The notes under the pieces are model-generated. The model searched no databases. It had not been told where the DNA came from and worked only from the letters and a program-made list of their open reading frames with translations. A program made the translations under genes and the position numbers. Of a stretch of DNA of 46,160 bases, positions 6,183-44,323 are shown piece by piece; position 1 is the first letter of the stretch; each line of letters starts with the position of its first letter. The stretch is taken from the sequence record SRR2962707_2796; one strand, 5' to 3'.

Positions 6183-6199
6183 TATCTAAGGAAGCTGAC

Positions 6200-11627: not shown

Positions 11628-11685
11628 TTATGTTGCTGCGCGCGCGACCTTTGCACGAACCGTATTTAGACAAGTGGCAGCCCTC

Positions 11686-14075: not shown

Positions 14076-14146
14076 CTTTTAGGCCTCGCTTTCCTCGCTG
14101 CCTATCATAGTGGCGAAGTCGGGTTTGTCTGCAAGTGGAATGCGAA

Positions 14147-14169
14147 AATCCCCCGAAGATCGGGGGATT
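14147..14169 (-). terminator. Intrinsic terminator after the dioxygenase gene
   Basis: 10-bp perfect stem AATCCCCCGA-AGA-TCGGGGGATT, followed by T residues on the minus strand. Confidence 0.7.
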
Positions 14170-14193
14170 CCAAAAGTCTTTGATAACGCGGCG

Positions 14194-15063: not shown

Positions 15064-15155
15064 CAGATTTCCTCCTCCAAGGATGTTACTGCAAAACCGT
15101 CCAAGACACTTCGTTTGGACCTGTTGGTGGCGATACTTTCCTAGCAAGCGCGTTC

Positions 15156-15196
15156 CTCCAATGCCCTGAGCGGTATCGACCAATACCTTCGCCTAT
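15156..15196 (-). promoter_or_regulatory. LysR-type binding region of the dioxygenase promoter
   Basis: Minus strand reads ATAGGCGAAGGTAT-TGGTCG-ATACCGCTCAGGGCAT-TGGAG, the same layout as the catB promoter. Confidence 0.6.
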
Positions 15197-28020: not shown

Positions 28021-28172
28021 AGTTTGTCACCGTCAAAGGGTTGGCGATTTCGCCGACAAATTCACACCGTTTAGGGTAACAAGAGAAGATAATGCGGTGC
28101 AAAGCCGCGATCAAAGTTCTTTTTTCTTACCGAATTCTAATGATTTACCATTCCAAAGGCCAGGGACAAGAT

Positions 28173-31100
28173 ATGTCATCTCCAGAGTTTTCATTACTTA
28201 CCAAACGCCGCTTTGCACCGCTTTTCATCGTCCAGTTTCTTGGTGCCTTTAATGACAACCTTCTGAAGTTCGCGATGCTTTTTCTGGCGAGCTTTGGGAT
28301 CTATGCGGCAGAGCCAGACAAAGCCGTGTTCTTGGCGACAATCGCGACGGGCGTGTTCATCTTACCCTATGTCCTGTTTTCGGCTTTGGCGGGGCAGATC
28401 GCCGATGCCTATGACAAAGCCTACTTGATACGTCTCGTAAAAGGGGCTGAGATTGGGATAATGGCCTTGGCTTTGACTGGCTTTTACTTTCAGTCGGTGC
28501 CGGTTTTGTTGATCGCTCTGTTCTTTATGGGTTTGCAGTCAGCCATGTTCGGGCCTTTGAAATACGCTATTATCCCTCAGCATTTGCGCGACAACGAAGT
28601 GATGGGCGGCACAGGCTTGGTTGAGGCCGGGACATTTATCGCCATCTTGGGCGGCCAAATGTTGGCGGGTGTCATTGATCCTTGGTTGGCCGGCCTGATT
28701 GCCATCGGGTTGGCGGTTCTTGGGTTTATGGCCAGTTTGGCGGTTCCCAAGGCTCCGGCGAGCAAACCGATCCTTAAGGTCGAGCGAAATATCTTTTCCA
28801 GTACGTTGACCATTTTAAAAGCCGCACGTGCGCTGCGCGGCGTTTGGCTGGCGATCCTTGGCATTGGGTGGTTTTTTGCGACAGGGGCCATTCTGTTGTC
28901 TGAACTGACACCCCTTGTGAGCGGCGTTCTGAAAGCGCAGCAAGAAGTTGCAACTTTGTTTCTGATCGTCTTTTCGATCAGTGTCGCCCTTGGGTCTATG
29001 TTGGTTAGCAAACTGCTTTCAGGCAAGGTTTCGGCGCGCTACGTGCCTGTGTCAGCCTTTGCCTTGGCGGCCTTTATGCTCGACCTGTGGTTTGTGACCC
29101 GTGGCCACCCCGGACTTTCTGCAGGCCGTGATATTACAGGGTTCCTAGAGGCTTCAAACAGCTGGCGGATCATCTTTGATCTCTTTGGGATTGGTGTCGC
29201 CGGCGGAATGTTTGTGGTGCCGCTCTATGCGATTGTGCAAACGTTTAGCCCGCCCGAAAAACGCTCTCGGATGATTGCCGCCAACAATATTATGAGCGCG
29301 ATCATTGTTGTAGCGGTCACCGTTGTCTCGATCCTGTTGGTCAAGATGGGCGTGTCTGTACCGGACATCATCGGTGTTCTTGGCGGTGCCACCTTAATCG
29401 TTGCGCTGATTTCCTGCTGGTTGTTGCCCGAGGTGGTGTTCAAATCGATCATTCGTCGGCTGTTGAAACTCTTCTATCGTGTCGAGGTCAAAGGCGCAGA
29501 GAACATGCCCAAGGCCGGGGAGCCCGCCGTCGTTGTCGTCAACCACGTTTCTTTCCTGGACGGCTTGTTGCTGGGGGCATTTTTGCCGGGCAAACCGACC
29601 TTTGCGTTGAGCGCCAGAATGGCCAAGGCTTGGTGGTTGAAGCCTTTTCTTCCACTTTTTGACGCCTTTCCCGTTGACCCAACGAACCCGATGTCGACCA
29701 AATCCATGGTCAATGCCGTGCGCGCAGGCCGTACTTTGGTGATCTTTCCGGAAGGTCGGATTACGGTGACAGGGGCTTTGATGAAGATCTTTGACGGTCC
29801 CGGTCTCGTCGCATCAAAAGCGAATGCGCCGATCATTCCAGTGCGTATTGATGGCGCGCAGTACACACCGTTCTCTCGCCTAAAAGGTAAAGTGCGCCAG
29901 CGCCGCTTTCCAAAAATTACTCTGACGGTTCTGAAACCGCGGCACATTGAAATCGAAGGTGACATGACGGCGCGAGAACGCAGAGCCAAAGCTGGGCAGC
30001 GCTTGTACGACGAGATGAGCCAGATGATGTTTGACACCTCTGACACGGACCGGACGTTGTTCAGCGCCTTGCTTGAGGCCAAACACATCTTCGGAGGAAA
30101 TTCTCCTATTCTTGAGGATGTTAAGCGCGTCCCTCTGAGTTATTCCAAATTGGTCACCGCGTCTCTTGCCCTTGGGCGACCCTTGTCGCGGATTACAGAA
30201 AAAGGGCAGGCGGTTGGCTTACTGATGCCAAACGTGAACGGGCTTGTCGTGACCTTCTATGCGATGCTGGCCCATGGGCGTGTGCCGGCGATGCTCAACT
30301 ACACAGCAGGTCTTGCCAATATCAAGGCCGCTTGTGTTGCGGCGGATGTCCGCACAATTGTCACAGCGCGCGCCTTTATTGAGCTGGCGGAACTCGGCGA
30401 CATCGTCGCGGGATTGGAGGCCGAAGGCATCACAATTGTCTGGTTGGAAGACATTGGCGCAAAGATCGGTTTTGCAGACAAAATTCGCGCCCTGATCGAA
30501 AGTAAATTTGCCGGACGTAACCATCATGCTTTGAAGATTTCAGCCAATGATCCAGCTGTAATTTTGTTTACCAGCGGTTCCGAAGGATTGCCGAAAGGTG
30601 TGGTTTTGACCCACAAGAACCTCTTGTCAAACTGCCGCCAACTTGCCGCACGGATTGACTTTTCTCCAACGGACACGGTTTTGAATGCTTTGCCGATCTT
30701 TCATAGTTTTGGTCTGACGGGCGGCACGTTACTTCCGATCTTATATGGTGTGAAAACAGTTCTTTATCCAAGCCCGCTGCATTACCGCATCGTTCCGGCG
30801 ATGGTCTATGACAGCAATGCAACGATCCTTTTTGGAACGGACACGTTCCTCGCTGGATATGCACGTATGGCGCACAGCTATGATTTCTATTCGCTGCGCT
30901 ATATTTTTGCCGGGGCAGAGCGGGTTAAGGATGAAACTCGCAAAGCCTATTCCGACAAATTCGGCTTACGGATCCTCGAGGGGTACGGCGCGACAGAAGC
31001 CGGACCTGTGATCGCTGTGAACACGCCGATGCATTTCCAGCCCGGATCGGTTGGCCGCTTGTTGCCCGGTATCGAAGCTCGCTTGGAAGCCGTGCCGGGA

Positions 31101-31568
31101 TTGGACGAGGGCGAACAGGTCTTCGTTCGGGGTCCGAACATTATGGCGGGGTATCTTAAGACGGACGCGCCGGGTGTTCTGCAACCACCAGAGGACGGTT
31201 GGCACGATACTGGGGACATCGTCACAATTGATGCAGAGGGCTTTGTCACCATTCGTGGGCGGGCGAAACGATTTACTAAAATCGCCGGTGAAATGGTCTC
31301 GCTCCCTGCTGTCGAAGGCTATGCCGCAAAGGTTTGGCCGGACGCTGAAAGCGCGGTTGTCACCCGGCCAGATGCCCGTAAAGGCGAACAATTGGTGTTG
31401 TTCACGACGAACAAGGACGCAAAACTGAGCGAGCTGCGGGCTTGGGGTAAGGAAAATGGGATCGCCGAGATCGCAATTCCGCGCGACATTCGAGTGCTGG
31501 ACAGTCTGCCGTTACTCGGAACAGGAAAGCTGGACTACGCAACGTTAAACACCATGGCCGCTCAGTAA
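28173..31568 (+). CDS. aas: Fused MFS (LplT-like) / 2-acylglycerophosphoethanolamine acyltransferase / acyl-ACP synthetase
   Basis: N-terminal QFLGAFNDN MFS domain; NHVSFLD and FPEGR acyltransferase motifs; FTSGSEGLPKG, EGYGATE, DTGD and GTGK AMP-binding motifs. Confidence 0.92.
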   Translation: MSSPEFSLLTKRRFAPLFIVQFLGAFNDNLLKFAMLFLASFGIYAAEPDKAVFLATIATGVFILPYVLFSALAGQIADAYDKAYLIRLVKGAEIGIMALALTGFYFQSVPVLLIALFFMGLQSAMFGPLKYAIIPQHLRDNEVMGGTGLVEAGTFIAILGGQMLAGVIDPWLAGLIAIGLAVLGFMASLAVPKAPASKPILKVERNIFSSTLTILKAARALRGVWLAILGIGWFFATGAILLSELTPLVSGVLKAQQEVATLFLIVFSISVALGSMLVSKLLSGKVSARYVPVSAFALAAFMLDLWFVTRGHPGLSAGRDITGFLEASNSWRIIFDLFGIGVAGGMFVVPLYAIVQTFSPPEKRSRMIAANNIMSAIIVVAVTVVSILLVKMGVSVPDIIGVLGGATLIVALISCWLLPEVVFKSIIRRLLKLFYRVEVKGAENMPKAGEPAVVVVNHVSFLDGLLLGAFLPGKPTFALSARMAKAWWLKPFLPLFDAFPVDPTNPMSTKSMVNAVRAGRTLVIFPEGRITVTGALMKIFDGPGLVASKANAPIIPVRIDGAQYTPFSRLKGKVRQRRFPKITLTVLKPRHIEIEGDMTARERRAKAGQRLYDEMSQMMFDTSDTDRTLFSALLEAKHIFGGNSPILEDVKRVPLSYSKLVTASLALGRPLSRITEKGQAVGLLMPNVNGLVVTFYAMLAHGRVPAMLNYTAGLANIKAACVAADVRTIVTARAFIELAELGDIVAGLEAEGITIVWLEDIGAKIGFADKIRALIESKFAGRNHHALKISANDPAVILFTSGSEGLPKGVVLTHKNLLSNCRQLAARIDFSPTDTVLNALPIFHSFGLTGGTLLPILYGVKTVLYPSPLHYRIVPAMVYDSNATILFGTDTFLAGYARMAHSYDFYSLRYIFAGAERVKDETRKAYSDKFGLRILEGYGATEAGPVIAVNTPMHFQPGSVGRLLPGIEARLEAVPGLDEGEQVFVRGPNIMAGYLKTDAPGVLQPPEDGWHDTGDIVTIDAEGFVTIRGRAKRFTKIAGEMVSLPAVEGYAAKVWPDAESAVVTRPDARKGEQLVLFTTNKDAKLSELRAWGKENGIAEIAIPRDIRVLDSLPLLGTGKLDYATLNTMAAQ

Positions 31569-31720: not shown

Positions 31721-32689
31721 TTATGACAAAACCGGGTCCGGATCGGTCAAGCGTTTTGCCGTAAATTTGTCGGTAATCAACAGGTCAATCACGCCCGTCC
31801 GCAACGCACCGCGAATGGCTTCGGTTTTGGATTGTCCCCCGGCCAAGGCAATCACCCGGTCAACGTTGGACAATTCTTCCAAGGTCACCCCGATCACACG
31901 CTCGTCCAACGGAGTCTTAATGAATTGGCCTTCGGCATCAAAGAACCGCAGACTAATGTCGCCGACGCCACCAGCTTGTTCGATTTCGGCATGTTCGCGC
32001 GATGAGAATACGTTACCGCTTCGCGCCAGTAGGCTGGACGGCTCAATCGAACCGATCCCAACAATTGCCAGAGATATCTTGCCGAACAGACCCATGGTTT
32101 CGCGGACGTAGGAATCGCCTGCCAGAACCAACTTTGCCTCACGCGACTGCGCGACACCGGGTGTGCTAAGCAACAGAGCTTCAGCTCCAGTAAGTTTGGC
32201 CAAGCGTGTTGTTAACTGAGTGGCATGGGTTTGAACGGCAGGGTCCCCCATACCGCCAAGGGTTTGGACAACATATTTCGCGCCGCCGGACTTCATCGGA
32301 TGGATGTTGTCGACCATGCGCAGAATGGTTTCCGACCAACTCGACACGCCAATGATCTCTTCTTTTTGCAAAGTGGCTTCAAGAAAGTGAGCGGCCGCCT
32401 CGCCAATGCGGGACATGATCGCCCCATCACGATCTTCTGAGCATTCGACAACAATGGCCTCTGACAGGCCATAACGGGTTCGCAACCCTTCTTCCAACTC
32501 AGAAAAAGTGCCCGATGGGGAAACGACTGTGGTTCGCACAATCTCTTCCTCATGGGCTTTCTTCAGCATCCTAGAGACAGTGGCCTGTGAAATCCTAAGA
32601 TGCCGTGCGATGTCAGCCTGTCGTTGCCCTTCAACATGATACATCTGAGCCACGCGGGCGATCATGCGAAGTTCATTCAATCGGGACAT
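31721..32689 (-). CDS. SorC/DeoR(Bacillus)-family sugar-binding transcriptional regulator
   Basis: VAQMYH....Q..IA..L.ISQATVSR.L HTH; GVSSW, VGIG, GDI..RFFD..G, AGG..K..AI.GAL, LITD. Confidence 0.92.
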   Translation of the reverse strand: MSRLNELRMIARVAQMYHVEGQRQADIARHLRISQATVSRMLKKAHEEEIVRTTVVSPSGTFSELEEGLRTRYGLSEAIVVECSEDRDGAIMSRIGEAAAHFLEATLQKEEIIGVSSWSETILRMVDNIHPMKSGGAKYVVQTLGGMGDPAVQTHATQLTTRLAKLTGAEALLLSTPGVAQSREAKLVLAGDSYVRETMGLFGKISLAIVGIGSIEPSSLLARSGNVFSSREHAEIEQAGGVGDISLRFFDAEGQFIKTPLDERVIGVTLEELSNVDRVIALAGGQSKTEAIRGALRTGVIDLLITDKFTAKRLTDPDPVLS

Positions 32690-32712
32690 TGGCGGCCTTT
32701 ATCTTAGGATTT

Positions 32713-32728
32713 GTGAATATTTATTCAC
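32713..32728 (-). promoter_or_regulatory. SorC-regulator operator (minus strand GTGAATAAATATTCAC) upstream of the regulator gene
   Basis: Near-perfect palindrome; the same motif occurs at 35983 and 36133. Confidence 0.7.
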
Positions 32729-34191
32729 TACACTACGCTCAATGTTCCTTCAATCGCTTTTTTCCATTGAACCAGATCGCTGTTGCGCCGATTGGCGTCG
32801 CTCACAGGAGGGATGCTTGTGTCATGATTGGCCAATTGGGCCAACGCGTCTTGGTCGGGCCAAAAACCAGTGGCCAAACCGGCAAGATGCGCCGCACCAA
32901 TTGCTGAGGCTTCTGAGTTTTTGCACGGCGTGACCGTATGATCCAAGGCGTTGGCGACACCCTGCATCAAGAACTGATTATGGCTCGGACCACCATCGAC
33001 AAACAGACGCCCAATGCCCTTAGCGGCTTTGCTCATGATCGTGAAAATATCATTGACCTGAAACGCCATACTGTCTGCGGCGGCCCGCGCGATGTGGGCC
33101 GGGCCGGATCCAAAGGACAATCCGCAAATTAACCCGCGGGCTTCTGCATTCCAATGGGGTGCACCAAGGCCCACATGGGCGGGTACAAGGGATACACCTT
33201 CACTCGAGTCGACCGTTTGTGCGAGGTCTAGCAGGTCGTCCACACTATCGAGGCCAAGCAGGTTGGCCGTCCATGGAAGAATGGACGCGCTGACCAGAAT
33301 GTTGCCCTCAAAGGCATAAGTGGATTTACCATTGATCGACCAAGCAATGGTTGTTGTGATTCCCTTAGCGGGCACAATGAACTCCGGAATCGTGGTCATC
33401 ACCGAAGATCCGGTGCCAAAAGTGATTTTGCCGTCGCCGGGCCCAAATGCGCCATGGCCAAACAGCGCAGCATGGGAATCCCCAATGGCCGAGGCAATGG
33501 CCACGCCGTCAGGTAAAACATCCGTGTCCTTGGTCGTGCCGAATACAAAGGCAGAATCGCAGACTTTGGGCAGCATGGCGGGGTCAATTCCGAACAGCGC
33601 ACAAAGCGTGGTGTCCCAAGTCCCATCAGCCAGGTTGAAAAGCTGCGTGCGCGCGGCATTCGACCGGTCCGTTGCATGAACAGTGCCGCCGGAAAACTTC
33701 CAGATCAGCCAACTGTCGACGGTTCCAATGCAAATATCCGAGGAGTCCTGCCCGTGGTTTTGCAAAAGCCATGCGGCCTTGGTGGGCGGGAAAAGCGGGT
33801 CCAATGGTAAACCTGTTCGCGCGATGACATCTGTTTCATGTCCCGCTGCGCGCAAGGCTTCGCAGGCGCTCGATGTTCTACGACATTGCCATGTGATCAC
33901 CGGTCCCAAAGGGGCACCGGTATTGCGATCCCAGATCAGAATCGATTCACGTTGGTTTGAAATCCCCAAGGCCGTGATTTCAGCGTCGGGGGCTTTTTCC
34001 AGACAGGCCGCAATCGCGGCTTGGGTGGCGCGCCAAATCTCGTTGGCGTCTTGCTGCACCCAACCGGACTGTGGATGCAGCGTCGGGACGGGGGATGCGC
34101 CGCTTGCGATGATGTCACCGGTTTCGGTGACCAAGACGGCCTTTGAATTGGTCGTCCCTTCATCAATTGCCAGAATGGCCCGTCGTCCCAT
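32728..34191 (-). CDS. FGGY carbohydrate kinase, glycerol-kinase-like (resembles apulose kinase)
   Basis: AIDEGTTNSK, GISNQRES, TWQCRRT, GTVDSWL, GDSHAALFG, TFGTGS, GLGAPHW, VDGG; WQC and DSH replace the WQD and DQQ of many GlpK proteins. Confidence 0.85.
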   Translation of the reverse strand: MGRRAILAIDEGTTNSKAVLVTETGDIIASGASPVPTLHPQSGWVQQDANEIWRATQAAIAACLEKAPDAEITALGISNQRESILIWDRNTGAPLGPVITWQCRRTSSACEALRAAGHETDVIARTGLPLDPLFPPTKAAWLLQNHGQDSSDICIGTVDSWLIWKFSGGTVHATDRSNAARTQLFNLADGTWDTTLCALFGIDPAMLPKVCDSAFVFGTTKDTDVLPDGVAIASAIGDSHAALFGHGAFGPGDGKITFGTGSSVMTTIPEFIVPAKGITTTIAWSINGKSTYAFEGNILVSASILPWTANLLGLDSVDDLLDLAQTVDSSEGVSLVPAHVGLGAPHWNAEARGLICGLSFGSGPAHIARAAADSMAFQVNDIFTIMSKAAKGIGRLFVDGGPSHNQFLMQGVANALDHTVTPCKNSEASAIGAAHLAGLATGFWPDQDALAQLANHDTSIPPVSDANRRNSDLVQWKKAIEGTLSVV

Positions 34192-34194
34192 TAT

Positions 34195-35154
34195 TTACCC
34201 TTTCCGCTTCAGCAGTGCTTCTGCACTATCCGCAATCGCACTGGGGGCCATGCCGAAATCGTCCAGCAGCGTGTTGGCGGACGCCGTGTGCGCAAAGACA
34301 CCCGGTACACCCAAACGCTTCATTGGAACAGAGTAACTGTCGACCACAACTTCGGCCACAGCGCTGCCAAGACCGCCAAAGGTTGTGTGTTCTTCACACG
34401 TCAAAATCGCCCCCGTTTCCTGAGCAGCCTTCAAAATCGCGTCGTCATCCGTTGGCCGAACCGTCGCCATGTTAAGCACACGGGCAGAAACACCGCGTTC
34501 TTTCAGGAGAGCGGCGGCAATCATAGCGCGGTGAGTTAGCACGCCATTTGCAATGATAGTCAGATCGTTCCCATCCTGAAGCAGGTTGGCTTTGCCCAGT
34601 TCAAAGACGTGGTCGTCTGAAAACAGATCCGGCACACCAACCCGGCTGAGACGCAGGAAGCATCCGCCGACATGTTCTGCTGCCCATTTTATGGCAGCCG
34701 CTGTTTCATGCCGATCCGCAGGTGCGATGACTGGCACGTTTGGCAACGCGCGAATCCACGCGAAATCTTCGATGGAGTGGTGTGTCGGTCCCAGTTCGCC
34801 ATAGGCCATGCCGGAACTGATCCCAACCAGTTTGACGTTGGTTTCAGAATACGCAACGTCGGCCTTGATCTGTTCCAGAGCCCGACCTGTCAAAAAGGGG
34901 GAGGCCGCACAGACAAAGGGAATCTTCCCGCCATTGGCCAAACCGGCGCCAACACCGACCATATTCTGTTCAGCAATACCGACATTGATGAGGCGTTCAG
35001 GAAAAGTATCCCGAAAGCCACCCAATTTGGACGATCCGACAGAGTCGTTACATACGGCAACAATGTCTGTGTTTTCGGTCGCCAAGGCCTCTAGCGTGGC
35101 GACAAAGCTGTCGCGACAATCAAAAAGCTTGGCCGTTTCAAAGGGCATGTTCAT
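34195..35154 (-). CDS. Transketolase, C-terminal (pyrimidine-binding) subunit
   Basis: NVGIAEQNMVG, RALEQIK, GPTHHSIED, EEH...GGLGSAVAE. Confidence 0.93.
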   Translation of the reverse strand: MNMPFETAKLFDCRDSFVATLEALATENTDIVAVCNDSVGSSKLGGFRDTFPERLINVGIAEQNMVGVGAGLANGGKIPFVCAASPFLTGRALEQIKADVAYSETNVKLVGISSGMAYGELGPTHHSIEDFAWIRALPNVPVIAPADRHETAAAIKWAAEHVGGCFLRLSRVGVPDLFSDDHVFELGKANLLQDGNDLTIIANGVLTHRAMIAAALLKERGVSARVLNMATVRPTDDDAILKAAQETGAILTCEEHTTFGGLGSAVAEVVVDSYSVPMKRLGVPGVFAHTASANTLLDDFGMAPSAIADSAEALLKRKG

Positions 35155-35972
35155 TTGCCGGCCTCCTCAAGCTCGGCCATCGCCTGCTTGTATTGTTCTT
35201 CGTTCGGGACTTTGTGGTGCCAAGCCACGTTGTCAGACATGAATGAGATACCTTGTCCCTTGTTCGTATGGGCAACGATACATTTGGGTCGACCTGGCGT
35301 TACCGTTTCTGGTGACAGTGCTTCACAGATCTGCCCCATGTCATGTCCGTCGATTTCCTCGACCGCCCAGCCAAACGACGCAAGCTTGGGGGCGAGTGGT
35401 GCCATGTTATTGGTGTCAGCCAGCCGTGCCCCTTGTTGAAGGCGGTTGTGGTCGATGATCAGGGTCAGGTTGTCCAGTTTGAACTGAGCGGCGGCCATGA
35501 TGGCTTCCCAATTGGAGCCTTCTTGCATCTCACCGTCGCCGGTGATCACAAAAGTACGCCAGTTGGCACCATCCAATTTTGCCGCTGACGCCATGCCGAC
35601 GCCGACAGGCAGTCCATGACCCAAGGGACCTGTGTTTGTTTCAACTCCCGGTACTTTGACCCGATTCGGGTGCCCGTTAAGATTGGAACGGTGTTTCAGA
35701 AAGGTTGAAACGTCTTCTTGTGGGATGAATCCCTTTTCCGCCAGCACAACATAAAGCGCCAGGGCCGTGTGTCCCTTGCTCAGCACTAAACGGTCTCGTT
35801 GAGGATCAAGAGGCGCGTCTGGGTTTACAGACATAGTATTGAAATACAGTGCGGTTAAAATGTCTGTTACGGACATCTCCCCACCGATATGACCGGCACC
35901 AGCCTCGTAAACTGCCCGGAGGTCGCGCATTCTGATTTTGTTGGCCAGTGCGCGGAGAGCTGTCTCTTCCAT
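35151..35972 (-). CDS. Transketolase, N-terminal (ThDP-binding) subunit
   Basis: GHIGG, DRLVLSKGH, GHP, TGPLGHG, ThDP motif GDGE.QEG.NWEA...N, WHH. Confidence 0.93.
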   Translation of the reverse strand: MEETALRALANKIRMRDLRAVYEAGAGHIGGEMSVTDILTALYFNTMSVNPDAPLDPQRDRLVLSKGHTALALYVVLAEKGFIPQEDVSTFLKHRSNLNGHPNRVKVPGVETNTGPLGHGLPVGVGMASAAKLDGANWRTFVITGDGEMQEGSNWEAIMAAAQFKLDNLTLIIDHNRLQQGARLADTNNMAPLAPKLASFGWAVEEIDGHDMGQICEALSPETVTPGRPKCIVAHTNKGQGISFMSDNVAWHHKVPNEEQYKQAMAELEEAGK

Positions 35973-35982
35973 TGCTTACCTC

Positions 35983-36148
35983 TGAATAAATATTCTGCCA
36001 ATAGTAAACATGCGCAATGCGGCGATGTCAAGCGACGTAATCGGCTAGAATTATGCTGCGTTGCGGCAATTTTCTAAAAATAATCGCTTCTTGACAAGGG
36101 GGTTGGCGTTCGATAGGTATTTTCCATCATGCGTGAATAAATATGCGC
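35983..36148. promoter_or_regulatory. Divergent promoter pair, each followed by a TGAATAAATAT operator
   Basis: Operators at 35983-35995 and 36133-36148; TTGACA at 36091-36096 (+) and at 36026-36031 (-), the latter with TACTAT at 36001-36006. Confidence 0.7.
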
Positions 36149-36161
36149 TAAAGGAGTGACC

Positions 36162-37142
36162 ATGACGACATCGCCCAGCTTACCACAAGGAAAGTCGCGT
36201 CTTTCCGCTCTATTCTCGTTGGGAGGTGCGACCGGGCCGCTTATCGGCCTTTTGTTGCTCTGTTTGTTTTTGTCCATCGCTACGGATTCGTTCCTGTCGG
36301 TGCGCAACTTTCTGAACATTATGGATCAGATCACGGTTTTGGGGATTTTGGCCGTTGGGATGACCTTTGTTATCCTGATCGGAGGTATCGACCTCTCTGT
36401 TGGATCAGTCCTTGCGCTTTCGATGATGGTTTTGGGCTACCTGAGCGTAGAGATGGGCATGCCGATGAGCATCGCTATCAGTGGAGCGCTCATCGCCTCA
36501 GCAATAACCGGGATAATAGCGGGCCTGATAATCACGGCCTTTAGTGTGCCTGCGTTCATCGCCACGCTGGCCATGATGTCGATCGCTCGTGGTGTCGCCA
36601 ATATGATCACGGACGGGTCTCAGATCATCGGATTTCCGGCTTGGTTCAACATGGGCGCAATTATCCGATATGGTGGCTTTCTGACGATGACAGTCGCCGT
36701 AATGCTGGCCGTGTTTATCGTGGCTTTTGTTTATCAGCGATATCGCGAAGGTGGACGCAAGCTTTATGCGGTTGGTGGAAACCCAGAAGTGGCGCGTTTG
36801 GCGGGTATCAATGTCAACCGAGTTACCGTTCTTGTTTACATGACATCGGCAACGCTTGCAGGCCTTGGTGGGGTTCTTCTTGCCGCCCGTCTGGATGCTG
36901 TACAGCCCTCAATTGGTGTTTCTTATGAGCTTGACGCAATTGCGGCGGTGGTCATCGGCGGGACCAGCCTGTCTGGAGGGACTGGCGGTATCGGGGGAAC
37001 ATTGATCGGTGTGTTGATCATCGGTGTATTGCGCAACGGTTTGAATTTGCTGTCCGTGTCACCCTTCAGTCAGGCCGTGATTATTGGCCTGGTGATCGTA
37101 CTCGCGGTGGCCGCTGAAACTTTCAAGAAGCCGACAAAGTGA
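36162..37142 (+). CDS. Sugar ABC transporter permease (RbsC-like)
   Basis: AAGGAG RBS before ATG 36162; GMTFVILIGGIDLSVGS, VPAFIATL, YAVGGNPEVARLAGI, YELDAIAAVVIGG.SL.GG. Confidence 0.94.
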   Translation: MTTSPSLPQGKSRLSALFSLGGATGPLIGLLLLCLFLSIATDSFLSVRNFLNIMDQITVLGILAVGMTFVILIGGIDLSVGSVLALSMMVLGYLSVEMGMPMSIAISGALIASAITGIIAGLIITAFSVPAFIATLAMMSIARGVANMITDGSQIIGFPAWFNMGAIIRYGGFLTMTVAVMLAVFIVAFVYQRYREGGRKLYAVGGNPEVARLAGINVNRVTVLVYMTSATLAGLGGVLLAARLDAVQPSIGVSYELDAIAAVVIGGTSLSGGTGGIGGTLIGVLIIGVLRNGLNLLSVSPFSQAVIIGLVIVLAVAAETFKKPTK

Positions 37143-37147
37143 TTTCG

Positions 37148-37176
37148 ATGAGTGCCGACACTGTGTCGGTGCTCAT
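37148..37176 (+). other. Intergenic 13-bp stem-loop between the permease and binding-protein genes
   Basis: ATGAGTGCCGACA-CTG-TGTCGGTGCTCAT. Confidence 0.55.
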
Positions 37177-37253
37177 TTCAGATAGTCCGGGAAATCGGGC
37201 TTAATTCGGTCCCTAAACAATGATGGACCAACACAACCTAGGAGGAGACATCC

Positions 37254-38189
37254 ATGAAACGCACTATTAAGGCTCTGCTGGCCGCGACAGCGCTCACAGC
37301 CGTGACAGGTGCCGCCGTCGCAGAAGGAGTCACCAAGATTGGACTTGCTGTGCCGAACCTGCAAGCTGACTTTTTCAACCAGATCAAACTGGGTGTTGAA
37401 GGTTACGCGGCCAAGCTTGGCATCGAAGTCATCACAGTGGACGCCAAGAATGACACGGCTACTCAGGTAAGCCAGGTGCAGGATTTGATCACCCAAGGTA
37501 TTGATGCGTTCATCTATATTCCTGCCGGTGCGGCCGCCGCGACGGTTCCAACACGCTTAGCCCGTGCTGAAGGCATCCCTGTCATCAACGTCGACCGTAC
37601 ACCCGATGGTGAGCCAGGGGATACTTTCATCGCCGGTGAAAGCATCGAGTCCGCCTACGAAGTGTGTAACCACATCATCGGTCTTGCCGGTGGCGAAGGT
37701 AAAATGGCCATCATCCACGGCCAGAAGGGTACAACACCCGAAGTGCTACGCTACCAAGGCTGCAAACGCGCCATCGATGAAAACCCAGGTGTTGAGCTTG
37801 TAACTCAGCAGTGGAGCCAGATGTGGTCGCCAGACGAAGGCTTCTCAATCGCTCAGAACATGTTGCAGGCCCACCCAGACATCAAACTGATCTTTGGTCA
37901 GGCTGATGGTCTTGCGATGGGTGCAGCGAAAGCTGTTGATGTTGCGGGCATGTCCGATCAGGTCATCATCGGCGGCTACGACGGCGACGTTGCAGCACTG
38001 GAATATCTGGCGAAATGTGAAGGTCCGTTTGTGGTTACAGCCACACAAAGCACCCAAGCCATGGGTGTTCTTGCGGTGAATTCTGCAATTGCGGCGTCTT
38101 ACGGTGCCTCTATTCCTGCACGCCAGATCCCAAATGCTGTTCTTACAACATGTGACGATGCGCCTGCATTCGTAGAACATCACCCATAA
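37254..38189 (+). CDS. Sugar ABC transporter substrate-binding protein (RbsB-like)
   Basis: AGGAGGAG RBS; Sec signal peptide; FF, IPVINVDR, D..A.GA, GYDG. Confidence 0.93.
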   Translation: MKRTIKALLAATALTAVTGAAVAEGVTKIGLAVPNLQADFFNQIKLGVEGYAAKLGIEVITVDAKNDTATQVSQVQDLITQGIDAFIYIPAGAAAATVPTRLARAEGIPVINVDRTPDGEPGDTFIAGESIESAYEVCNHIIGLAGGEGKMAIIHGQKGTTPEVLRYQGCKRAIDENPGVELVTQQWSQMWSPDEGFSIAQNMLQAHPDIKLIFGQADGLAMGAAKAVDVAGMSDQVIIGGYDGDVAALEYLAKCEGPFVVTATQSTQAMGVLAVNSAIAASYGASIPARQIPNAVLTTCDDAPAFVEHHP

Positions 38190-38235
38190 GACCTAGGGTC
38201 TGACAGGCATCGCGACATTCATAAAGGCAGTACTG

Positions 38236-39729
38236 ATGACATCCGAAACAAGTTCTCCAATTCTTACCTTGCGAAACATTCACAAGTCCTATGGGCCGAT
38301 TGAAGTTTTGCACGGCATCGACATGGAAATCCATGCCGGAGAAGTTGTGGCTCTTTTGGGTGAAAACGGTGCTGGCAAGTCTACGGTGTCTAATATCATC
38401 TCGGGGACGGTTCTGCCGTCCTCGGGGGAAATGACATGGCAGGGCGCAGATTATGCGCCCGCCACACCGCGCGAAGCAATTGATTTGGGGGTCGGCATGA
38501 TCCACCAGGAATTGTTGCTGTTGCCGCATCTTACAATCGCTGAGAACATTTTTGTGGGCCGGTATCCTATGAGGAATGGGATGGTGGACCGTAAAGAAAT
38601 GAATCGCCGCGCGCGCCAAGGCCTTGAGCGGCTTGGATTAGACATTTCACCACGTCGAACGGTCGAAGGTCTTTCTACTGCTAGCCAGCAGTTGATCGAA
38701 ATTGCCAAGGCGCTCACCTTGAATGCCAAGCTGCTTATTCTTGATGAGCCGACGGCAGCACTTGGTGGTGACGAAACAAAACTACTCTTTGCCCAGATTG
38801 AACGCCTAAAGGCCGAAGGCGTCGGGATCATTTATATCTCGCATCGCCTTGAAGAGATTAAACAAATTGCAGATCGTATTGTCGTCATGCGCGATGGGGA
38901 AAAGGTTCAGGATTTTGACACCGCTGACCTTCCAGTCCGGACTATCGTCGAAGCCATGGTCGGACGTAGTATGGATCAGATGTTCCCCCCGTTAACGGCG
39001 CCGTCCGAAGAAACTGTTTTGGAAGTTGAAAAACTTTCGTCCCCGTCGGGAAGTTTTGACGATGTGAACTTTTCAGTGAAAAAGGGCGAGATTTTCGGCA
39101 TCGCCGGACTTGTCGGAGCAGGGCGCACCGAACTTGTCAGAGCGATTGCAGGGGCAGACCCGATCAAAGCCGGAACTATCACGTTAAACGGCAAGGACAT
39201 TACGCCAAAATCCACAGGGGATGCGATTAAACATGGCATTGTGTTGGTCCCTGAGGATCGTAAACTTCAAGGTGTCATCCTTGATCATGGTATTCGCGAG
39301 AACATCGCCTATTCGAACTTTGATGCCGTCGGCAAAAGTGGCTGGATCTTTTCCCGCCGTGTTGACGAATTTGCCAATGAAAACATCAAGAAATTTGGCG
39401 TCAAAGGGGTTGGACGACAAAAGGCCGGAGAGATGTCAGGCGGCAACCAGCAAAAGGTTGTGATTGCCAAATGGCTCGCCCGTAATCCACGTGTTGTGCT
39501 GTTGGATGAGCCGACCCGTGGAATTGATGTGGGGGCCCGGTCTTCAATCTATGAAATCATCAATGGCCTCGCGGCCCAAGGCGTCGCGGTTATTGTTGTG
39601 AGTTCAGATCTTGAAGAGGTTCTGGGCGTTTCAAACCGCATCCTTGTGATGGCGGCAGGGCGCCAAACAGGTATTCTTGATCGTAGCGAGGCCAATGATG
39701 TCTCGGTTATGGAATTGGCAACTGCTTAA
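38236..39729 (+). CDS. Sugar ABC transporter ATP-binding protein (RbsA-like, two ABC domains)
   Basis: GENGAGKST, LDEPTA, YISHRL, PEDRK, SGGNQQKV, DEPTRGIDVGA. Confidence 0.95.
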   Translation: MTSETSSPILTLRNIHKSYGPIEVLHGIDMEIHAGEVVALLGENGAGKSTVSNIISGTVLPSSGEMTWQGADYAPATPREAIDLGVGMIHQELLLLPHLTIAENIFVGRYPMRNGMVDRKEMNRRARQGLERLGLDISPRRTVEGLSTASQQLIEIAKALTLNAKLLILDEPTAALGGDETKLLFAQIERLKAEGVGIIYISHRLEEIKQIADRIVVMRDGEKVQDFDTADLPVRTIVEAMVGRSMDQMFPPLTAPSEETVLEVEKLSSPSGSFDDVNFSVKKGEIFGIAGLVGAGRTELVRAIAGADPIKAGTITLNGKDITPKSTGDAIKHGIVLVPEDRKLQGVILDHGIRENIAYSNFDAVGKSGWIFSRRVDEFANENIKKFGVKGVGRQKAGEMSGGNQQKVVIAKWLARNPRVVLLDEPTRGIDVGARSSIYEIINGLAAQGVAVIVVSSDLEEVLGVSNRILVMAAGRQTGILDRSEANDVSVMELATA

Positions 39730-39748
39730 ATACTCTAGGGAGAATGGT

Positions 39749-40531
39749 ATGAACCGTTTTGAGGGAAAAACCGTCGTTGTGACCGGCGGCAATAAGGGTA
39801 TTGGGCTCGCCATAGCGACACGGTTCGCAGACGAGGGCGCCAATGTGGTGATTGCCTCGGTCGAGCCGCAGGTTGAAGACGTCGCCGCTGCCTTGCGTGA
39901 GACAGGCGCAAAGGCCCTTGGTGTCTTGTGCGACGTGACCGACCGAGATGCGGTTGTATCACTTTATGATCAAGCGGAAGCCGCTTTTGGTCCCGTGGAC
40001 ATATCCGTTCAAAATGCCGGTGTCATTACGATCGCCAAGATCGAAGATCTGACCGAACGTGAATGGGACATGAATATGAACGTCAACACAAAGGGCGCGT
40101 TCCTGTGTTGCCAAGAAGCGATCCGCCGGATGCGAAAAACCGGGAACGGCGGCAAGCTGATCAATATGGCCTCGGGGCAAGCGCGCGACGGTTTCATCTA
40201 CACCCCGCATTACGCCGCTTCCAAATTCGGCGTCATGGGGATGACTCAGAGCCTCGCGAAAGAAGTGGCGCTGGACAACATCACTGTGAACGCAATCTGT
40301 CCGGGGATCATCCGAACAGACATGTGGGCCTATAATGACAAAGTCTGGGGGGAAATGCTCGGCGATTTCAAACCAGGTGAGCTGATGGAGAGCTGGGTCC
40401 AGAACATCCCGATGAAGCGCGCAGGAGAAGGCAAGGACGTGGCGGGATTGATCGCTTTCTTGGCCAGCGATGACGCAGATTACATCACTGGGCAGACCAT
40501 CAACGTCGATGGCGGGCTGATCATGTCTTGA
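39749..40531 (+). CDS. SDR oxidoreductase (polyol/acetoin-dehydrogenase-like)
   Basis: TGGNKGIG, NAGV, YAASK, CPG, YITGQTINVDGG. Confidence 0.9.
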   Translation: MNRFEGKTVVVTGGNKGIGLAIATRFADEGANVVIASVEPQVEDVAAALRETGAKALGVLCDVTDRDAVVSLYDQAEAAFGPVDISVQNAGVITIAKIEDLTEREWDMNMNVNTKGAFLCCQEAIRRMRKTGNGGKLINMASGQARDGFIYTPHYAASKFGVMGMTQSLAKEVALDNITVNAICPGIIRTDMWAYNDKVWGEMLGDFKPGELMESWVQNIPMKRAGEGKDVAGLIAFLASDDADYITGQTINVDGGLIMS

Positions 40532-40570
40532 AAAAGACACGTGACCTAGAAAACTCTTCAGGAGATCGAA

Positions 40571-41359
40571 ATGACTAAACTCACCTTGAATGCTCCTGCA
40601 ATGTTCGAGCTGACGGACCGTGTGGCCCTTGTCACCGGCGCAGGTAGCGGTATTGGACAGAGAATTGCGTTGGGAATGGCGCAATGTGGTGCTGACGTGG
40701 CCTGTGTCGATCGTCGCACGGATGGCGGGTTGGCTGAAACTCTCGAACTGATTGCGGGGACAGGGCGCAAGGCGATTGCCATCGGTGCCGATGTCACGGA
40801 TCGCGCGGCGCTGGATGCTGCGGTTGCCCAGACCGAAGCCGATTTGGGTCCGCTTCGCATTGCTGTGAATGCGGCTGGGATCGCCAACGCAAATCCCGCC
40901 GAGGACATGAGCGAAGATCAGTACCAGACCCTTATGGATATTAACCTGAAGGGCATCTTTTTGTCCTGTCAGGCCGAAGCAAACGCTATGCTAAAGCACG
41001 GGCAGGGGGCGATCATCAATATCGCCTCTATGTCCGGAGTTATCGTGAATCGGGGGTTGATGCAGGCCCATTACAACGCATCCAAGGCGGGCGTGATCCA
41101 CATGTCCAAATCCATGGCGATGGAATGGGTGGATCGTGGGTTGCGGGTCAATACGATCAGTCCAGGCTATACTGCCACCCCGATGAACACCCGGCCGGAG
41201 ATGGTTCATCAGACAAAAGAGTTTGAGAGCCAGACGCCGATGCAACGGATGGCAAGTGTAGATGAAATCGTCGGTCCAGCCGTCTTTCTGGCATCGGATG
41301 CAGCCTCGTATTGTACCGGTGTAGATTTGCTGGTGGATGGTGGTTTTTGTTGTTGGTAA
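40571..41359 (+). CDS. SDR oxidoreductase (polyol dehydrogenase / ketose reductase-like)
   Basis: [16 protein letters not shown]...Q..YNASKA is typical of mannitol/arabitol-dehydrogenase-like SDRs; SPGY..T. Confidence 0.9.
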
Positions 41360-41369
41360 GGGTCTGGAA

Positions 41370-42119
41370 ATGAAATCGAAACTTGCCGCAGGCAATTGGA
41401 AGATGAACGGTCTCGGCGCAGAATTGTCCGAGATCGAAACACTTATCGCCAATATGGGAACTATGAGTTGCGACGTGCTTATTTGTCCGCCAGCGACATT
41501 GATTGCACGCATGTCCGTCCTTTCAGATGGCACTAACTTGCACGTCGGGGCGCAAGATTGTCACCCTGACGAGAGTGGCGCTCATACCGGCGATCTTTCC
41601 GCTGAGATGCTCGTAGATGCAGGCGCCAGCCATGTCATTCTGGGCCATTCCGAGCGCCGGGCCGACCATGGTGAAACGGATGCTGTGGTGAAGGCAAAAA
41701 CGGTCGCCGCGTGGCGGGCAGGTTTAAACGCGATCGTTTGTGTTGGTGAAACCGAAGCGCAGCGCGACGTTGGCGAAACGATAAACGTGGTTGCCGCTCA
41801 AATGGCCGGGTCTTTGCCTGATGGGTGTTTGGCGCATCAAACCGTTGTGGCATACGAACCGATATGGGCCATTGGTACAGGGCGGACACCGACGTTAGAG
41901 CAAATCGCTGAGGTACACGCCTTTATGCGCGCTGAACTTGTGAAAAGATTTCCAAGTGAGGCAAGTCAAATCAGATTGCTGTATGGCGGGTCCGTAAAAC
42001 CTTCAAATGCGGTGGACATTTTTGCTCAGCCTGACGTGGACGGGGCGCTTGTTGGGGGCGCTTCTCTGAAAGCCTTGGACTTTTCTCAGATTGTCCTCGC
42101 TTTAAACAGTGCGGAATAA
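41370..42119 (+). CDS. tpiA: Triosephosphate isomerase
   Basis: Canonical [42 protein letters not shown]. Confidence 0.95.
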
Positions 42120-42201
42120 GAGAAAAACACACTCCACCTCTTGCGATATTGTCCACAAAAGAGGACATAACCGACGATGATCATCCTTTAGGAGACCCAA
42201 A

Positions 42202-43143
42202 ATGCCGAGTGTTCTTGATCAACTGCGTGAAATGACAGTTGTTGTCGCCGATACAGGCGAAGTTGCCGCTGTTGCACGCTATAAGCCGGTTGATTGTACA
42301 ACCAACCCCTCTTTGGTTCTGGGCGCGTTGAAGGACCCGGCTTCTGAAGGTTTGATTGCATCAGCCATCGAAACAGGCAGCAAAGCCGGGCTATCCCCTG
42401 AGCAGCTGACTGAAACTCTGACGGTTGCTGTTGGCGCAGAGCTGACCAAAATGGTTACTGGCCGGGTGTCGACCGAGGTAGACGCATGTTTGTCTTTTGA
42501 TACGCAAGCCTCTGTTGAACGTGGCCGTGCGATCATTGCTGACTATGCAGAGCGTGGCATTGGAAAAGAGCGGATTTTGATCAAGCTCGCCTCCACTTGG
42601 GAAGGTATCCGCGCCGCTGAGATTTTGCAGGACGAAGGCATCGACTGTAACCTCACGCTTCTGTTCTCGATGGCTCAGGCGGTTGCCTGTGCGGACGCCG
42701 GTGCGTTTTTGATCTCGCCTTTCGTAGGTCGTATCACAGATTGGTACAAAAAAGCCGAGGGTGTCGAAAGCTATCTTCCAGACGAAGATCCAGGCGTGAA
42801 ATCGGTTCGTAGCATTTACGATTATTACAAATCCAATGGCATCAAGACCGTTGTGATGGGCGCGTCTTTCCGCAACACAGATCAGATCAAAGCTCTGGCC
42901 GGTTGTGACAATCTGACAATCGCTCCGAAACTTCTGGATGCGTTGTCGCAAGACCAAGCCACACTGCCACGCGTTTTGTCTCCTGAAACGGCGCAGGATG
43001 CTGCACCGGTCAAAATGGACGAAGCCGCGTTCCGCTGGGCAATGAACAGCGATGCGATGGCGACAGAAAAACTGGCTGAAGGCATTCGTAACTTCGACGC
43101 CGACCACAAGAAACTTATCGAACTGGTCGCAGGCCGGATGTGA
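42202..43143 (+). CDS. tal: Transaldolase (long, TalB type)
   Basis: [46 protein letters not shown]. Confidence 0.95.
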
Positions 43144-43205: not shown

Positions 43206-43969
43206 CACGACCACTCTCATCTTCCGCTTTCAGACTAGGCTGCCTTTTAAAGCGACGTGTGATGAGACTTTTCTAATACAGTATTACTATAAAACAATGG
43301 CTTACATAGGGTTTCACGCGAGCCTTGTGTAATTGTTTTTGCGTCTTCCTGATGCGGATAACCGTACAGTCGGTCAGACCGGTTTACCGTAATGCCCAAA
43401 TGTTTGGACGTCCGTTGGTAATTCGAGGCAGGCTTTGCCACCCAGCATCCGCGGCACCCAAACCACTTATCAGGTTGATCTGGACCTAAAGACCACAAGA
43501 CGATGGTGGCGCAACAAAAACAGACCAAATATCGGCAGTTGCTTAATATCGGTTGAGTGGCTAAGTAAAAGATACAAGGGAACGCTGTTTTCTGCTGTCC
43601 AGGCGCATGGCCTGCCGATGCGAATTGCCTTCCTCCATCAAGAAAATTCAGCTGTCACACCCGTTACTGGGGTTTGGTGTATGAGAAGGTTGCCGATGCA
43701 TTCGCGTACGACCCAACCATTTGTGATGCCTGCTTTTCTGAGATCGGGGGCATCCAGCCGCGCGCTTGGCAAACGGTGTGCAAAGCGGCTTCCATATTCA
43801 GGTATTTCGGCTTCAGCAATAAGTTCTTTTGGACCGTTGCCATGGCCTAACTGTGCTGCGAAGTGCCCCCTTTGAAAGTCGCCTTTCAGGAGCGGCTTAA
43901 GTCCAAATCTAATCTACGTCGACAATTGAAACATAGTGAGACGGCGCTTTCTCCGTCAAAGGATCAAAA

Positions 43970-44323
43970 ATGACATTTCCAGAATGGACGAAACCCGGCA
44001 TCTACGGGGCGATCGCGGGCGCGATTGCAATCTCAATCCTTGGCTTTTCGGTCGGTGGCTGGACAACAGGCGGAAGCGCTCAAGAAATGGCTGAAGATCT
44101 CGCTGAGAAGGAAGTCACATTAGCCATGGTTCCTTTATGTGTCAGCATGTCAAAATCAGACCCTGAACGCATCGCAAAGATGGCGACGATTCAAGAGGCT
44201 TCCGGCTTCAGTCGCCGCAAAGCCGTTCTGGATACAGGGTGGGCGACACTGCCTGGAGAAGCAAATCCAAACCGGGATCTGGCCGCTGCTTGTGTTGACG
44301 CGCTAGAGCTTGACGCCTCCTAA
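43970..44323 (+). CDS. Hypothetical membrane-anchored protein (alphaproteobacterial type)
   Basis: AAGGA RBS; N-terminal TM KPGIYGAIAGAIAISILGF..GGW; two Cys and a GWATLPG motif. Confidence 0.8.
   Translation: MTFPEWTKPGIYGAIAGAIAISILGFSVGGWTTGGSAQEMAEDLAEKEVTLAMVPLCVSMSKSDPERIAKMATIQEASGFSRRKAVLDTGWATLPGEANPNRDLAAACVDALELDAS

Follow-up and report, generated by a model that had tools for sequence, protein, structure and literature searches.

We analyzed a gene cluster located at positions 31721 to 43143 of the sequence record SRR2962707_2796, a stretch of DNA of 46,160 nucleotides that is referred to here as the window. The cluster consists of 2 divergent operons, which encode a regulator, a kinase related to glycerol kinase, a split transketolase, a sugar importer of the ATP-binding cassette (ABC) type and 2 different short-chain dehydrogenases/reductases (SDRs), which we refer to as SDR1 and SDR2. 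Our preferred reading, which we consider probable though by no means certain, is that the cluster represents an alphaproteobacterial version of the non-oxidative D-apiose pathway, with the 2 SDRs taking the place of the sugar isomerase. The genes and features of the cluster, with bit scores for the family models, are as follows.

31721..32689, minus strand: SorC/DeoR-type sugar-binding transcriptional regulator, the last gene of the minus-strand operon (PF04198, 215 bits)
32728..34191, minus strand: GlpK-like FGGY kinase, the proposed kinase for the branched ketose apulose (PF00370, 213.6 bits; PF02782, 100.1 bits)
34195..35154, minus strand: C-terminal half of transketolase, AptB-like (PF02779 and PF02780)
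35151..35972, minus strand: N-terminal, thiamine-diphosphate-binding half of transketolase, AptA-like (PF00456, 146 bits)
36156..37142, plus strand: ABC permease of carbohydrate uptake transporter family 2 (CUT2) type (PF02653; 247 bits, below cut-off, for a ribose-permease-like model)
37254..38189, plus strand: periplasmic sugar-binding protein (PF13407, 161 bits)
38236..39729, plus strand: ABC ATPase with 2 cassettes (PF00005 in 2 stretches)
39749..40531, plus strand: SDR1, FabG/acetoin-reductase-like (PF00106, PF13561; the open reading frame opens at 39677, with a likely start at the ATG at 39749)
40571..41359, plus strand: SDR2, polyol-dehydrogenase-like (NF004774, 485.8 bits, cut-off 360)
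41337..42119, plus strand: triosephosphate isomerase (TIM), accessory (PF00121, 286 bits)
42202..43143, plus strand: transaldolase of the TalAB type, the last plus-strand gene (TIGR00874, 432 bits, cut-off 396)
43302..43332, plus strand: terminator-like hairpin of 13 pairs with a T-rich tail, about 160 nt 3' of the transaldolase stop

A sequence-only reading of this DNA had reported a split transketolase, a GlpK-like FGGY kinase, a SorC regulator, an ABC importer, 2 different SDRs, a TIM and a transaldolase, and the open reading frames (ORFs) together with the Pfam and NCBIfam matches bore out all of these gene types. It had also stated that genes for an isomerase, a lactonase and a RuBisCO-like protein were missing, which held for all of the 37 ORFs scanned with Pfam across the whole window (15 + 22), none of which matched sugar isomerases (PF02952, PF01261), lactonases or RuBisCO. 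Nor was any match to the isomerases of the Rahnella and Sodalis clusters obtained in the window with tblastn at E ≤ 1e-5. The plus-strand operon opened with the gene for the permease rather than with that for the binding protein, and the genes for the 2 transketolase halves, which were located next to the gene for the kinase, overlapped by 4 nt.

The distribution of the cluster was surveyed in species-representative genomes with an alignment of SDR2 homologs as the sole anchor. Relatives of SDR2 were encoded in at least 580 stretches of these genomes, and, judged by this marker SDR, at least 580 genomes at the species level carry the nine-gene core. The 80 loci that were kept were searched with the window proteins by tblastn, which identified the ATPase in 78 loci, SDR1 (at 65% identity or more) and the binding protein in 77 each, the SorC regulator, the transketolase C-terminal half and the permease in 75 each, the transketolase N-terminal half in 74, and the kinase in 73, several of the misses being contigs that ended inside the cluster. 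Since each of the other core genes recurred in 73 to 78 of the 80 loci, which had been fetched by SDR2 alone, the arrangement is not a matter of chance. The genes for TIM and transaldolase, which the earlier reading had listed with the cluster, were present in 11 and 0 of the 80 loci, respectively, and do not belong to the unit as it recurs. An aldo-keto reductase encoded at 44523-45533, tried as a candidate aldose reductase, was placed outside the unit, as it was found in 0 of the 80 loci.

The carriers were chiefly members of the Paracoccaceae/Roseobacter group, Rhizobiaceae, Aurantimonadaceae and Ahrensiaceae, with a few Gammaproteobacteria, and the best match to the kinase among the surveyed loci (76%) came from Nioella aestuarii, so that the species of the window itself is not represented in the survey. 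The cluster is present in the culturable strains Nioella aestuarii JCM 30752, Martelella limonii NBRC 109441 and Ahrensia kielensis DSM 5890, and also in Rhizobium etli and S. meliloti Rm41. The window comes from a marine-type alphaproteobacterium. Rhizobial plasmids, in Shinella as well as pRM41A in Sinorhizobium meliloti Rm41, showed the same architecture as the window, and tpiA and tkt were located downstream of the cluster in the Rm41 strain. It was also noted that the most common non-core neighbor was RibB (3,4-dihydroxy-2-butanone-4-phosphate synthase, PF00926), which was encoded just beyond SDR2 in 25 of the 80 loci, mostly rhizobial (for example L061:11092-11736, in the range L012-L091, and also L002:1652-2287). 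Other recurrent non-core neighbors in the 80 loci were an ABC ATPase (15 loci) and lumazine synthase (6 loci), and none belonged to an isomerase family. The proximity of RibB and lumazine synthase could be either plain synteny or a link via ribulose 5-phosphate.

The 2 SDRs connected the window to a described system. A D-apiose cluster has been reported in Escherichia coli STc131/STc14 and in Escherichia fergusonii (PMC13001218, J Bacteriol 2026), and according to that report, D-apiose supports the growth of strains with the cluster but not that of K-12; 2 oxidoreductases are suggested there as the replacement for apsI. The cluster in E. coli SE15, ECSF_RS02670-ECSF_RS02715, was used as the reference for our comparisons. 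SDR1 showed 57.3% identity to ECSF_RS02675 and SDR2 showed 66.7% identity to ECSF_RS02670, and this pairing was reciprocal and one-to-one, with cross-matches of 29%. The NF004774 model recognized both SDR2 and its E. coli counterpart (485.8 and 506 bits); the product name attached to this equivalog is merely "SDR family oxidoreductase". A tree of SDR2 left 3 sub-lineages unresolved.

The NAG and YxxxK motifs were intact in both proteins, the latter in the form YAASK in SDR1 and YNASK in SDR2. According to the coenzyme rules for classical SDRs, a motif of the type seen in SDR1 goes with NADP(H), and an Asp at the end of beta-2 with NAD(H). In the motif TGGNKGIG of SDR1 the second Gly is directly preceded by a basic residue, and an acidic residue is absent from the end of beta-2, for which reasons SDR1 would prefer NADP(H) under these rules and is possibly NADPH-linked. 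Either Lys or Arg preceded the second Gly in 10 of the 10 SDR1 orthologs for which the aligned segment covered the motif, with Arg in E. coli. The Asp at the end of beta-2 in SDR2 suggests, by the same rules, that this enzyme is NAD-linked. The nearest solved relatives of SDR1 were FabG and acetoin/diacetyl reductases, and those of SDR2 included galactitol, polyol and sorbitol dehydrogenases. These features are compatible with a reductase and dehydrogenase pair and would fit the conversion of apiose to apiitol and of apiitol to apulose.

Percent identity was rejected as a test for membership in the AplK and AptAB groups, because true GlpK proteins and generic split transketolases fell in the same range. 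The window transketolase halves were 48% and 40% identical to AptA and AptB in E. coli, versus 41% to 49% and 31% to 42% to generic ones, and split transketolases with 40% to 52% identity to the window N-terminal half were present in 81 of 401 alphaproteobacterial genomes. As percent identity cannot discriminate between the groups, we used trees labelled by gene context. The transketolase tree was inferred from the concatenated halves in 48 rows, which were labelled by their neighbors and included the 20-kb contexts of the best 27 of the 81 matches and 4 control regions. All 23 transketolases whose gene neighbors included a FucI-family cluster isomerase or the SDR pair formed a single clade, with a Shimodaira-Hasegawa-like approximate likelihood ratio test (SH-aLRT) support of 98, and all 25 split transketolases without such neighbors were placed outside it. 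The 23 rows of the clade comprised 13 of the window type, 3 of the alphaproteobacterial isomerase type, G028, G030, E. coli, Rahnella, Sodalis, and the loci L026 and L054. A constrained tree, in which the window and alphaproteobacterial types were joined with the nearest generic group and kept off the enterobacterial AptAB, was rejected by the approximately unbiased (AU) test with a p-AU of 0.0116, a value to be read with the reservations that the group was named after the tree had been seen and that the program flagged long branches. The clade is usable as a signature for annotation.

The window kinase scored below the cut-offs of 2 GlpK models (458.9 bits with a cut-off of 498, and 454.6 bits with a cut-off of 590) and of the XylB model (196.5 bits, cut-off 380), and the cluster kinases in E. 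coli and Rahnella reached 495 and 476 bits on the GlpK model. Each of the 5 genomes or records that were checked carried a separate, true GlpK (678 to 767 bits) besides the cluster kinase (445 to 495 bits), and the E. coli cluster kinase was about 41% identical to the true GlpKs. A quick maximum likelihood tree united 29 of 29 cluster kinases in one clade (SH-aLRT 95) and kept the 5 true GlpKs out of it, but the AU test did not reject a grouping of the window-type kinases with GlpK, as detailed below. Tyr135 was replaced by Leu or Met and Phe270 was absent (GTGCF to GTGS-) in all 29 cluster kinases, GDQQ beside the catalytic Asp245 was changed to GDSH, and the substitutions S15N, R17K, H47Q and T80S were each present in at least 90% of the proteins. 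Arg83, Glu84, Trp103 and Asp245 were retained in nearly all of the 29 rows, and all 5 true GlpKs compared kept the GlpK residues at the sites that were altered in the cluster kinases. We take Tyr135, Phe270 and the other altered sites to be glycerol-binding positions, with roles and numbering as in the literature on E. coli GlpK, and on that assumption the pocket residues appear to provide clearer evidence for the kinase branch than the tree. The loss of Phe270, the change of Tyr135 to Leu or Met, and the GDSH motif may serve as a signature for annotation of the kinase; NCBIfam gives generic FGGY kinase and transketolase names to the cluster enzymes.

A homolog of the FucI-family isomerase, with 44% to 49% identity, was identified in 9 of 55 genomes with the SDR cluster, while 1 genome contained a relative with 27% identity alone and 45 contained none at the thresholds applied. 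No match to PF02952 was obtained in the 5 closest genomes, although control genomes gave matches; these searches covered the FucI-type (PF02952) family, and an isomerase of the xylose-isomerase-like TIM-barrel type could still lie elsewhere in a genome. The enterobacterial plasmid clusters, found in Rahnella, Sodalis and Klebsiella pneumoniae (pINF102.2), were of the isomerase type. Their genes were ordered as binding protein, DUF2291, ATPase, permease, SorC, transketolase N-terminal half, transketolase C-terminal half, isomerase and kinase, and the isomerase was a protein of 472 amino acids in the L-fucose/L-arabinose isomerase family (PF02952). None of the 120 listed relatives of the cluster isomerase was named D-apiose isomerase or came from Pectobacterium, and a sample of 400 gammaproteobacterial genomes yielded 2 kinase matches and no Pectobacterium-type cluster.

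Several loci contained elements of both types. In Tropicimonas (locus L112), genes for an apiose-type importer, with a binding protein 69% identical to that in Sodalis, and for a FucI-family isomerase were located 212 bp from the SDR2 gene of a window-type cluster, and in Pseudoxanthobacter the same importer-isomerase module shared a contig with SDR2, at a distance of about 14 kb. The module had no kinase or transketolase gene of its own in either case, and each of the 2 genomes contained only one kinase and only one transketolase N-terminal half of the clade, both of the window type, so that the isomerase module, if working there, must use the window-type trunk. Locus L109 (identical to L047) contained a single operon, at 3053-14146, for a window-type importer, SDR1, SDR2, a FucI-family isomerase, a split transketolase and a kinase. 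An isomerase fragment in L111 immediately preceded a transketolase N-terminal half with 77% identity to that of the window. Furthermore, 2 genomes with the SDR cluster each contained a separate, complete cluster of the isomerase type, and 3 contained an isomerase without a kinase or transketolase nearby. In Pokkaliibacter (L026) and in L054, a window-type importer and SDR2, and in L026 also SDR1, were joined to enterobacterial-like transketolases, which were 78% to 80% and 69% to 75% identical to AptA and AptB, respectively, in E. coli and Rahnella. We also noted an SDR-type cluster in a member of the Geminicoccaceae (L015 / G408) for which no kinase was found within the locus; elsewhere in this genome, at L108, was a second cluster, complete and of the isomerase type, that included a kinase.

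The binding protein of the window was only 26% identical to that of the E. coli SE15 cluster. Its best structural match was 2ioy (125 bits), with 5ibq at 87 bits, and its nearest solved relatives were ribose-binding proteins, whereas the binding protein of the E. coli cluster matched 5ibq/4ry0 at 270 bits. We take 5ibq to be a structure that holds D-apiose. No match to DUF2291 was found in the window. An AlphaFold model of the window binding protein had a predicted local distance difference test (pLDDT) score of 84.5, and a comparison with the PDB tied CUT2 binding proteins for many different sugars (Z 29 to 33.5), so that no call of the ligand class was possible from the fold search.

At the end of the plus-strand operon, the ORF of TIM, taken from its first ATG, overlaps the SDR2 stop by 23 nt, and the true start may therefore lie later. 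In 3 relatives with a TIM gene in the cluster, this gene was an extra copy, the genomes containing 2, 3 and 2 TIM genes; the recurrent extra TIM would fit, as circumstantial evidence, a pathway with dihydroxyacetone phosphate (DHAP) as product and glyceraldehyde 3-phosphate as co-substrate. The transaldolase gene starts 82 nt after that for TIM, and co-transcription of the two is plausible. The hairpin at 43302..43332 is merely a plausible operon end, as the number of hairpins in the window, 18 versus 16.3 expected, was not above chance. A box of 13 nt, TGAATAAATAT[T/G]C, had 3 matches in the window, all of which were located in the cluster, versus 0.08 expected, and is a candidate operator for the SorC protein. 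The 68 orthologous intergenic regions compared contained related 8- to 10-mers in 43 to 61 cases. The 3 boxes in the window are located as follows.

32715..32727, minus strand: box TGAATAAATATTC, a candidate operator between the kinase stop and the regulator start
35983..35995, plus strand: box TGAATAAATATTC, in the divergent promoter region, beside the transketolase start
36134..36146, plus strand: box TGAATAAATATGC, 9 nt before the permease start

The core of the preferred reading, a D-apiose pathway with SDRs for the isomerase, is supported by the orthology of the SDR pair, the transketolase clade, the pocket signature of the kinase and the loci that are shared with importer-isomerase modules. 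The sequence-only reading had already suggested an apiose-like kinase and split-transketolase route with SDRs in place of the isomerase, and this part of it stands, now with comparative evidence. The gene content, homologies, clade membership, conserved synteny and the absence of the FucI-type isomerase in close relatives were observed here, whereas all reactions, the cofactors, which SDR acts first, the ligand and the mode of regulation are inferred. The substrate of the CUT2 ABC system would most likely be D-apiose or a sugar closely related to it. SDR1, proposed for the first redox step, and SDR2, proposed for the second, would jointly convert the aldose to the ketose apulose, most simply via apiitol. 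The GlpK-derived kinase is proposed to phosphorylate one hydroxymethyl arm of apulose, and the split transketolase is proposed to transfer C1 and C2 of apulose 4-phosphate as a unit to glyceraldehyde 3-phosphate, thereby forming xylulose 5-phosphate and DHAP. The TIM encoded in the operon would recycle DHAP to the acceptor, giving a net conversion of apulose 4-phosphate to xylulose 5-phosphate, and transaldolase may assist in drawing off the pentose phosphate. Both operons are probably under the control of the SorC-type protein, via the 3 copies of the 13-nt box.

A number of observations weigh against this reading. Among the loci compared, transaldolase was present at the window alone. The SDR pair and the isomerase occur together in L109 and adjoin each other, with their own importers, in L112, which speaks for a second substrate rather than for mere replacement. 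The window lacks DUF2291, and its binding protein has no relation to the type in E. coli, Rahnella and 5ibq, and the imported compound may therefore differ. Members of NF004774 with 64% to 65% identity to SDR2 stand without a kinase or a transketolase in L184:9343-10191 and L185:9612-10376, and such unrelated contexts imply that the SDR2 family alone does not fix the reaction. The window kinase was 39% to 40% identical to the enterobacterial cluster kinases versus 38% to 40% to true GlpKs, and a grouping of the window-type kinases with GlpK was not rejected by the AU test (p 0.111, log-likelihood difference 15.6). Finally, the support from E. coli (PMC13001218) is growth of cluster-positive strains rather than knockouts or enzyme assays, and FucI and AraA relatives in E. 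coli could isomerize apiose.

NF004774 was met in 5 of the 401 genomes of an even alphaproteobacterial sample, and as 2 of these 5 matches were in unrelated contexts, its use as a pure pathway marker was rejected. One of the 2 unrelated members was located with a CUT1 ABC importer and another SDR, and the other had peptide-type ABC ATPases and a TIM-barrel protein resembling xylose isomerase as neighbors.

The points about the importer and the mixed loci lead to a different account of the upstream steps, in which the kinase and transketolase form the same apulose trunk but the window importer and the SDR pair serve another compound, which 2 redox steps would turn into apulose or a close analog and which might be apiitol or a different sugar or polyol of the branched or rare kind, while D-apiose is handled by the separate importer-isomerase module where present. 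We regard this as unlikely. The window binding protein differs in type from that of the apiose clusters, each importer in L112 adjoins its own first-step enzyme with one set of kinase and transketolase serving both, L109 has the SDR pair and the isomerase in one operon, and 9 of the 55 genomes keep both solutions; the unrelated binding protein and the loci at which SDRs and isomerase coexist therefore keep the second substrate alive. However, E. coli and Klebsiella aerogenes pair the same SDRs with an apiose-type binding protein and no isomerase, and cluster-positive E. coli strains grow on D-apiose (PMC13001218). Moreover, it is common for a sugar to have 2 importers, a single dehydrogenase would suffice for a polyol, and literature searches turned up no natural source of free apiitol. 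In its most far-reaching form, that the window importer, SDR1 and SDR2 make up an independent front end which feeds a compound different from free D-apiose into the apulose trunk, alongside the isomerase front end, the idea is doubtful. If true, at least 2 substrates found in nature would enter the trunk, and the orphan D-apiose/apiitol oxidoreductase activity would gain a gene, that of one of the SDRs.

An ordinary route for pentitols or rare pentuloses, for example from L-xylulose via xylitol to D-xylulose with an NADPH-dependent reductase and an NAD-dependent dehydrogenase, and with the FGGY protein as a pentulose kinase and transketolase, transaldolase and TIM as extra pentose-phosphate enzymes, is improbable. 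It would account for the reductase-like motif in one SDR and the polyol-dehydrogenase-like character of the other, for the presence of transketolase, transaldolase and TIM, each of which belongs to the pentose-phosphate pathway or to glycolysis, and for the ribose-binding proteins as the nearest solved relatives of the binding protein. It is at odds with the GlpK-derived kinase, which remained far below the XylB cut-off, and with the presence of a separate, true XylB (560 bits) in a relative that has the cluster. The transketolase belongs to the apiose-cluster clade, apart from the 25 context-free split transketolases, the transaldolase was not seen in any of the 80 related loci, and the SDR pair is orthologous to the pair in the E. 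coli apiose cluster.

Very improbable, finally, is a route from erythritol or threitol to erythrulose, or one for glycerol and dihydroxyacetone with a GlpK-like kinase: although the kinase is GlpK-like, a TIM is present and both SDRs scored about 206 to 208 bits on the GolD/DthD dehydrogenase model, these scores are under the cut-off of 286, the glycerol pocket has Tyr135 replaced and Phe270 missing while relatives keep a true GlpK, genes of the erythrulose-phosphate isomerase type were not found in the cluster with Pfam, and the transketolase, judging from its chemistry, would have no evident role for erythrulose 4-phosphate or DHAP.

Outside the cluster, the window contained several other gene sets. 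Directly upstream, at 28092-31568 on the plus strand, is a gene for a fusion protein of 1158 amino acids that combines a major facilitator superfamily transporter, an acyltransferase and an acyl-ACP synthetase, where ACP is acyl carrier protein (NF005291, acyl-[ACP]--phospholipid O-acyltransferase, 1609 bits). The segment 15705-22072 encodes a branched-chain-type ABC importer and, behind it, a beta-keto-acid cleavage enzyme (BKACE), and the genes at 11593-15183, for a muconate-cycloisomerase-like member of the enolase superfamily, a LysR regulator and a member of the catechol dioxygenase family, resemble a small set for aromatic ring cleavage. Hydantoinase/oxoprolinase A and B subunits, 2 aldehyde dehydrogenases and a member of the isocitrate/isopropylmalate dehydrogenase family are encoded at 2-8730. 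Between the genes for transaldolase and the aldo-keto reductase are 2 plus-strand ORFs, 43435-43875 and 43970-44323, for proteins of 146 and 117 amino acids with no match in Pfam or NCBIfam.

Apiose is characteristic of the pectic polysaccharide rhamnogalacturonan-II and, in duckweeds and seagrasses, of the apiogalacturonans, and its breakdown by bacteria is a part of plant-cell-wall carbon turnover, both on land and at the coast. The non-oxidative D-apiose pathway of ApsI, AplK and AptA/AptB was reportedly described by Carter et al. in Nat Chem Biol in 2018. This ApsI/AplK/AptAB pathway is cited as such in PMC13001218 and PMC13753588. The clusters of this type in Rahnella, Sodalis and on the K. 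pneumoniae plasmid have the kinase, the split transketolase, a SorC-type regulator and an ABC importer in common with the window, but contain a FucI/AraA-family isomerase between transketolase and kinase, where the window has 2 SDRs instead.

Reduction followed by oxidation in place of an isomerase, as proposed for the SDRs in the window, is also the principle of the fungal xylose route, in which the aldose is reduced to a polyol and the polyol is oxidized at C2 to the ketose. The fungal enzymes differ in being an aldo-keto reductase and a medium-chain dehydrogenase, rather than 2 SDRs. An apiose reductase activity from apiose-grown cells of Aerobacter aerogenes (now Klebsiella) is said to have been described in a paper from 1970, and the SDR-type cluster in K. 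aerogenes would fit such an activity. The reaction of D-apiose with NADH to D-apiitol is listed for D-apiose reductase as KEGG R03577 (PMC1686944). Literature searches for apiose reductase and apiitol dehydrogenase returned nothing relevant and no gene tied to the apiose reductase activity.

The closest known system is the cluster in E. coli SE15, which, like the window, contains a SorC regulator, a GlpK-like kinase, a split transketolase, a CUT2 importer and 2 different SDRs and has no isomerase, and with which the window also shares the transketolase clade and the kinase pocket changes. A cluster of the E. coli type with SDRs is also carried by K. aerogenes NCTC10006. Sequence identities between the window and SE15 were 48% for the transketolase N-terminal half, 40% each for the C-terminal half and the kinase, 42% for SorC, 39% for the ATPase and 38% for the permease. 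The two clusters differ in gene order and in the binding protein, which is of the 5ibq/4ry0 type in E. coli and of another type, without a DUF2291 gene, in the window. In addition, the window kinase and transketolase are placed in separate subclades, and TIM and transaldolase are additions in the window. The sequence-only reading had envisaged an additional branched-sugar pathway, but the same substitution for the isomerase has already been proposed for Escherichia (PMC13001218), and the window is a further, widespread alphaproteobacterial member of this isomerase-free design. The names of rhizobia and Paracoccus do not occur in 2 of the supplementary files of that report. The form of the pathway with 2 dehydrogenases and no isomerase is no Escherichia oddity but is widespread, with a different importer, among Alphaproteobacteria of the sea and the soil, Rhizobiaceae and Paracoccaceae included, and the culturable, harmless carriers among them offer hosts in which both dehydrogenase steps could be worked out.

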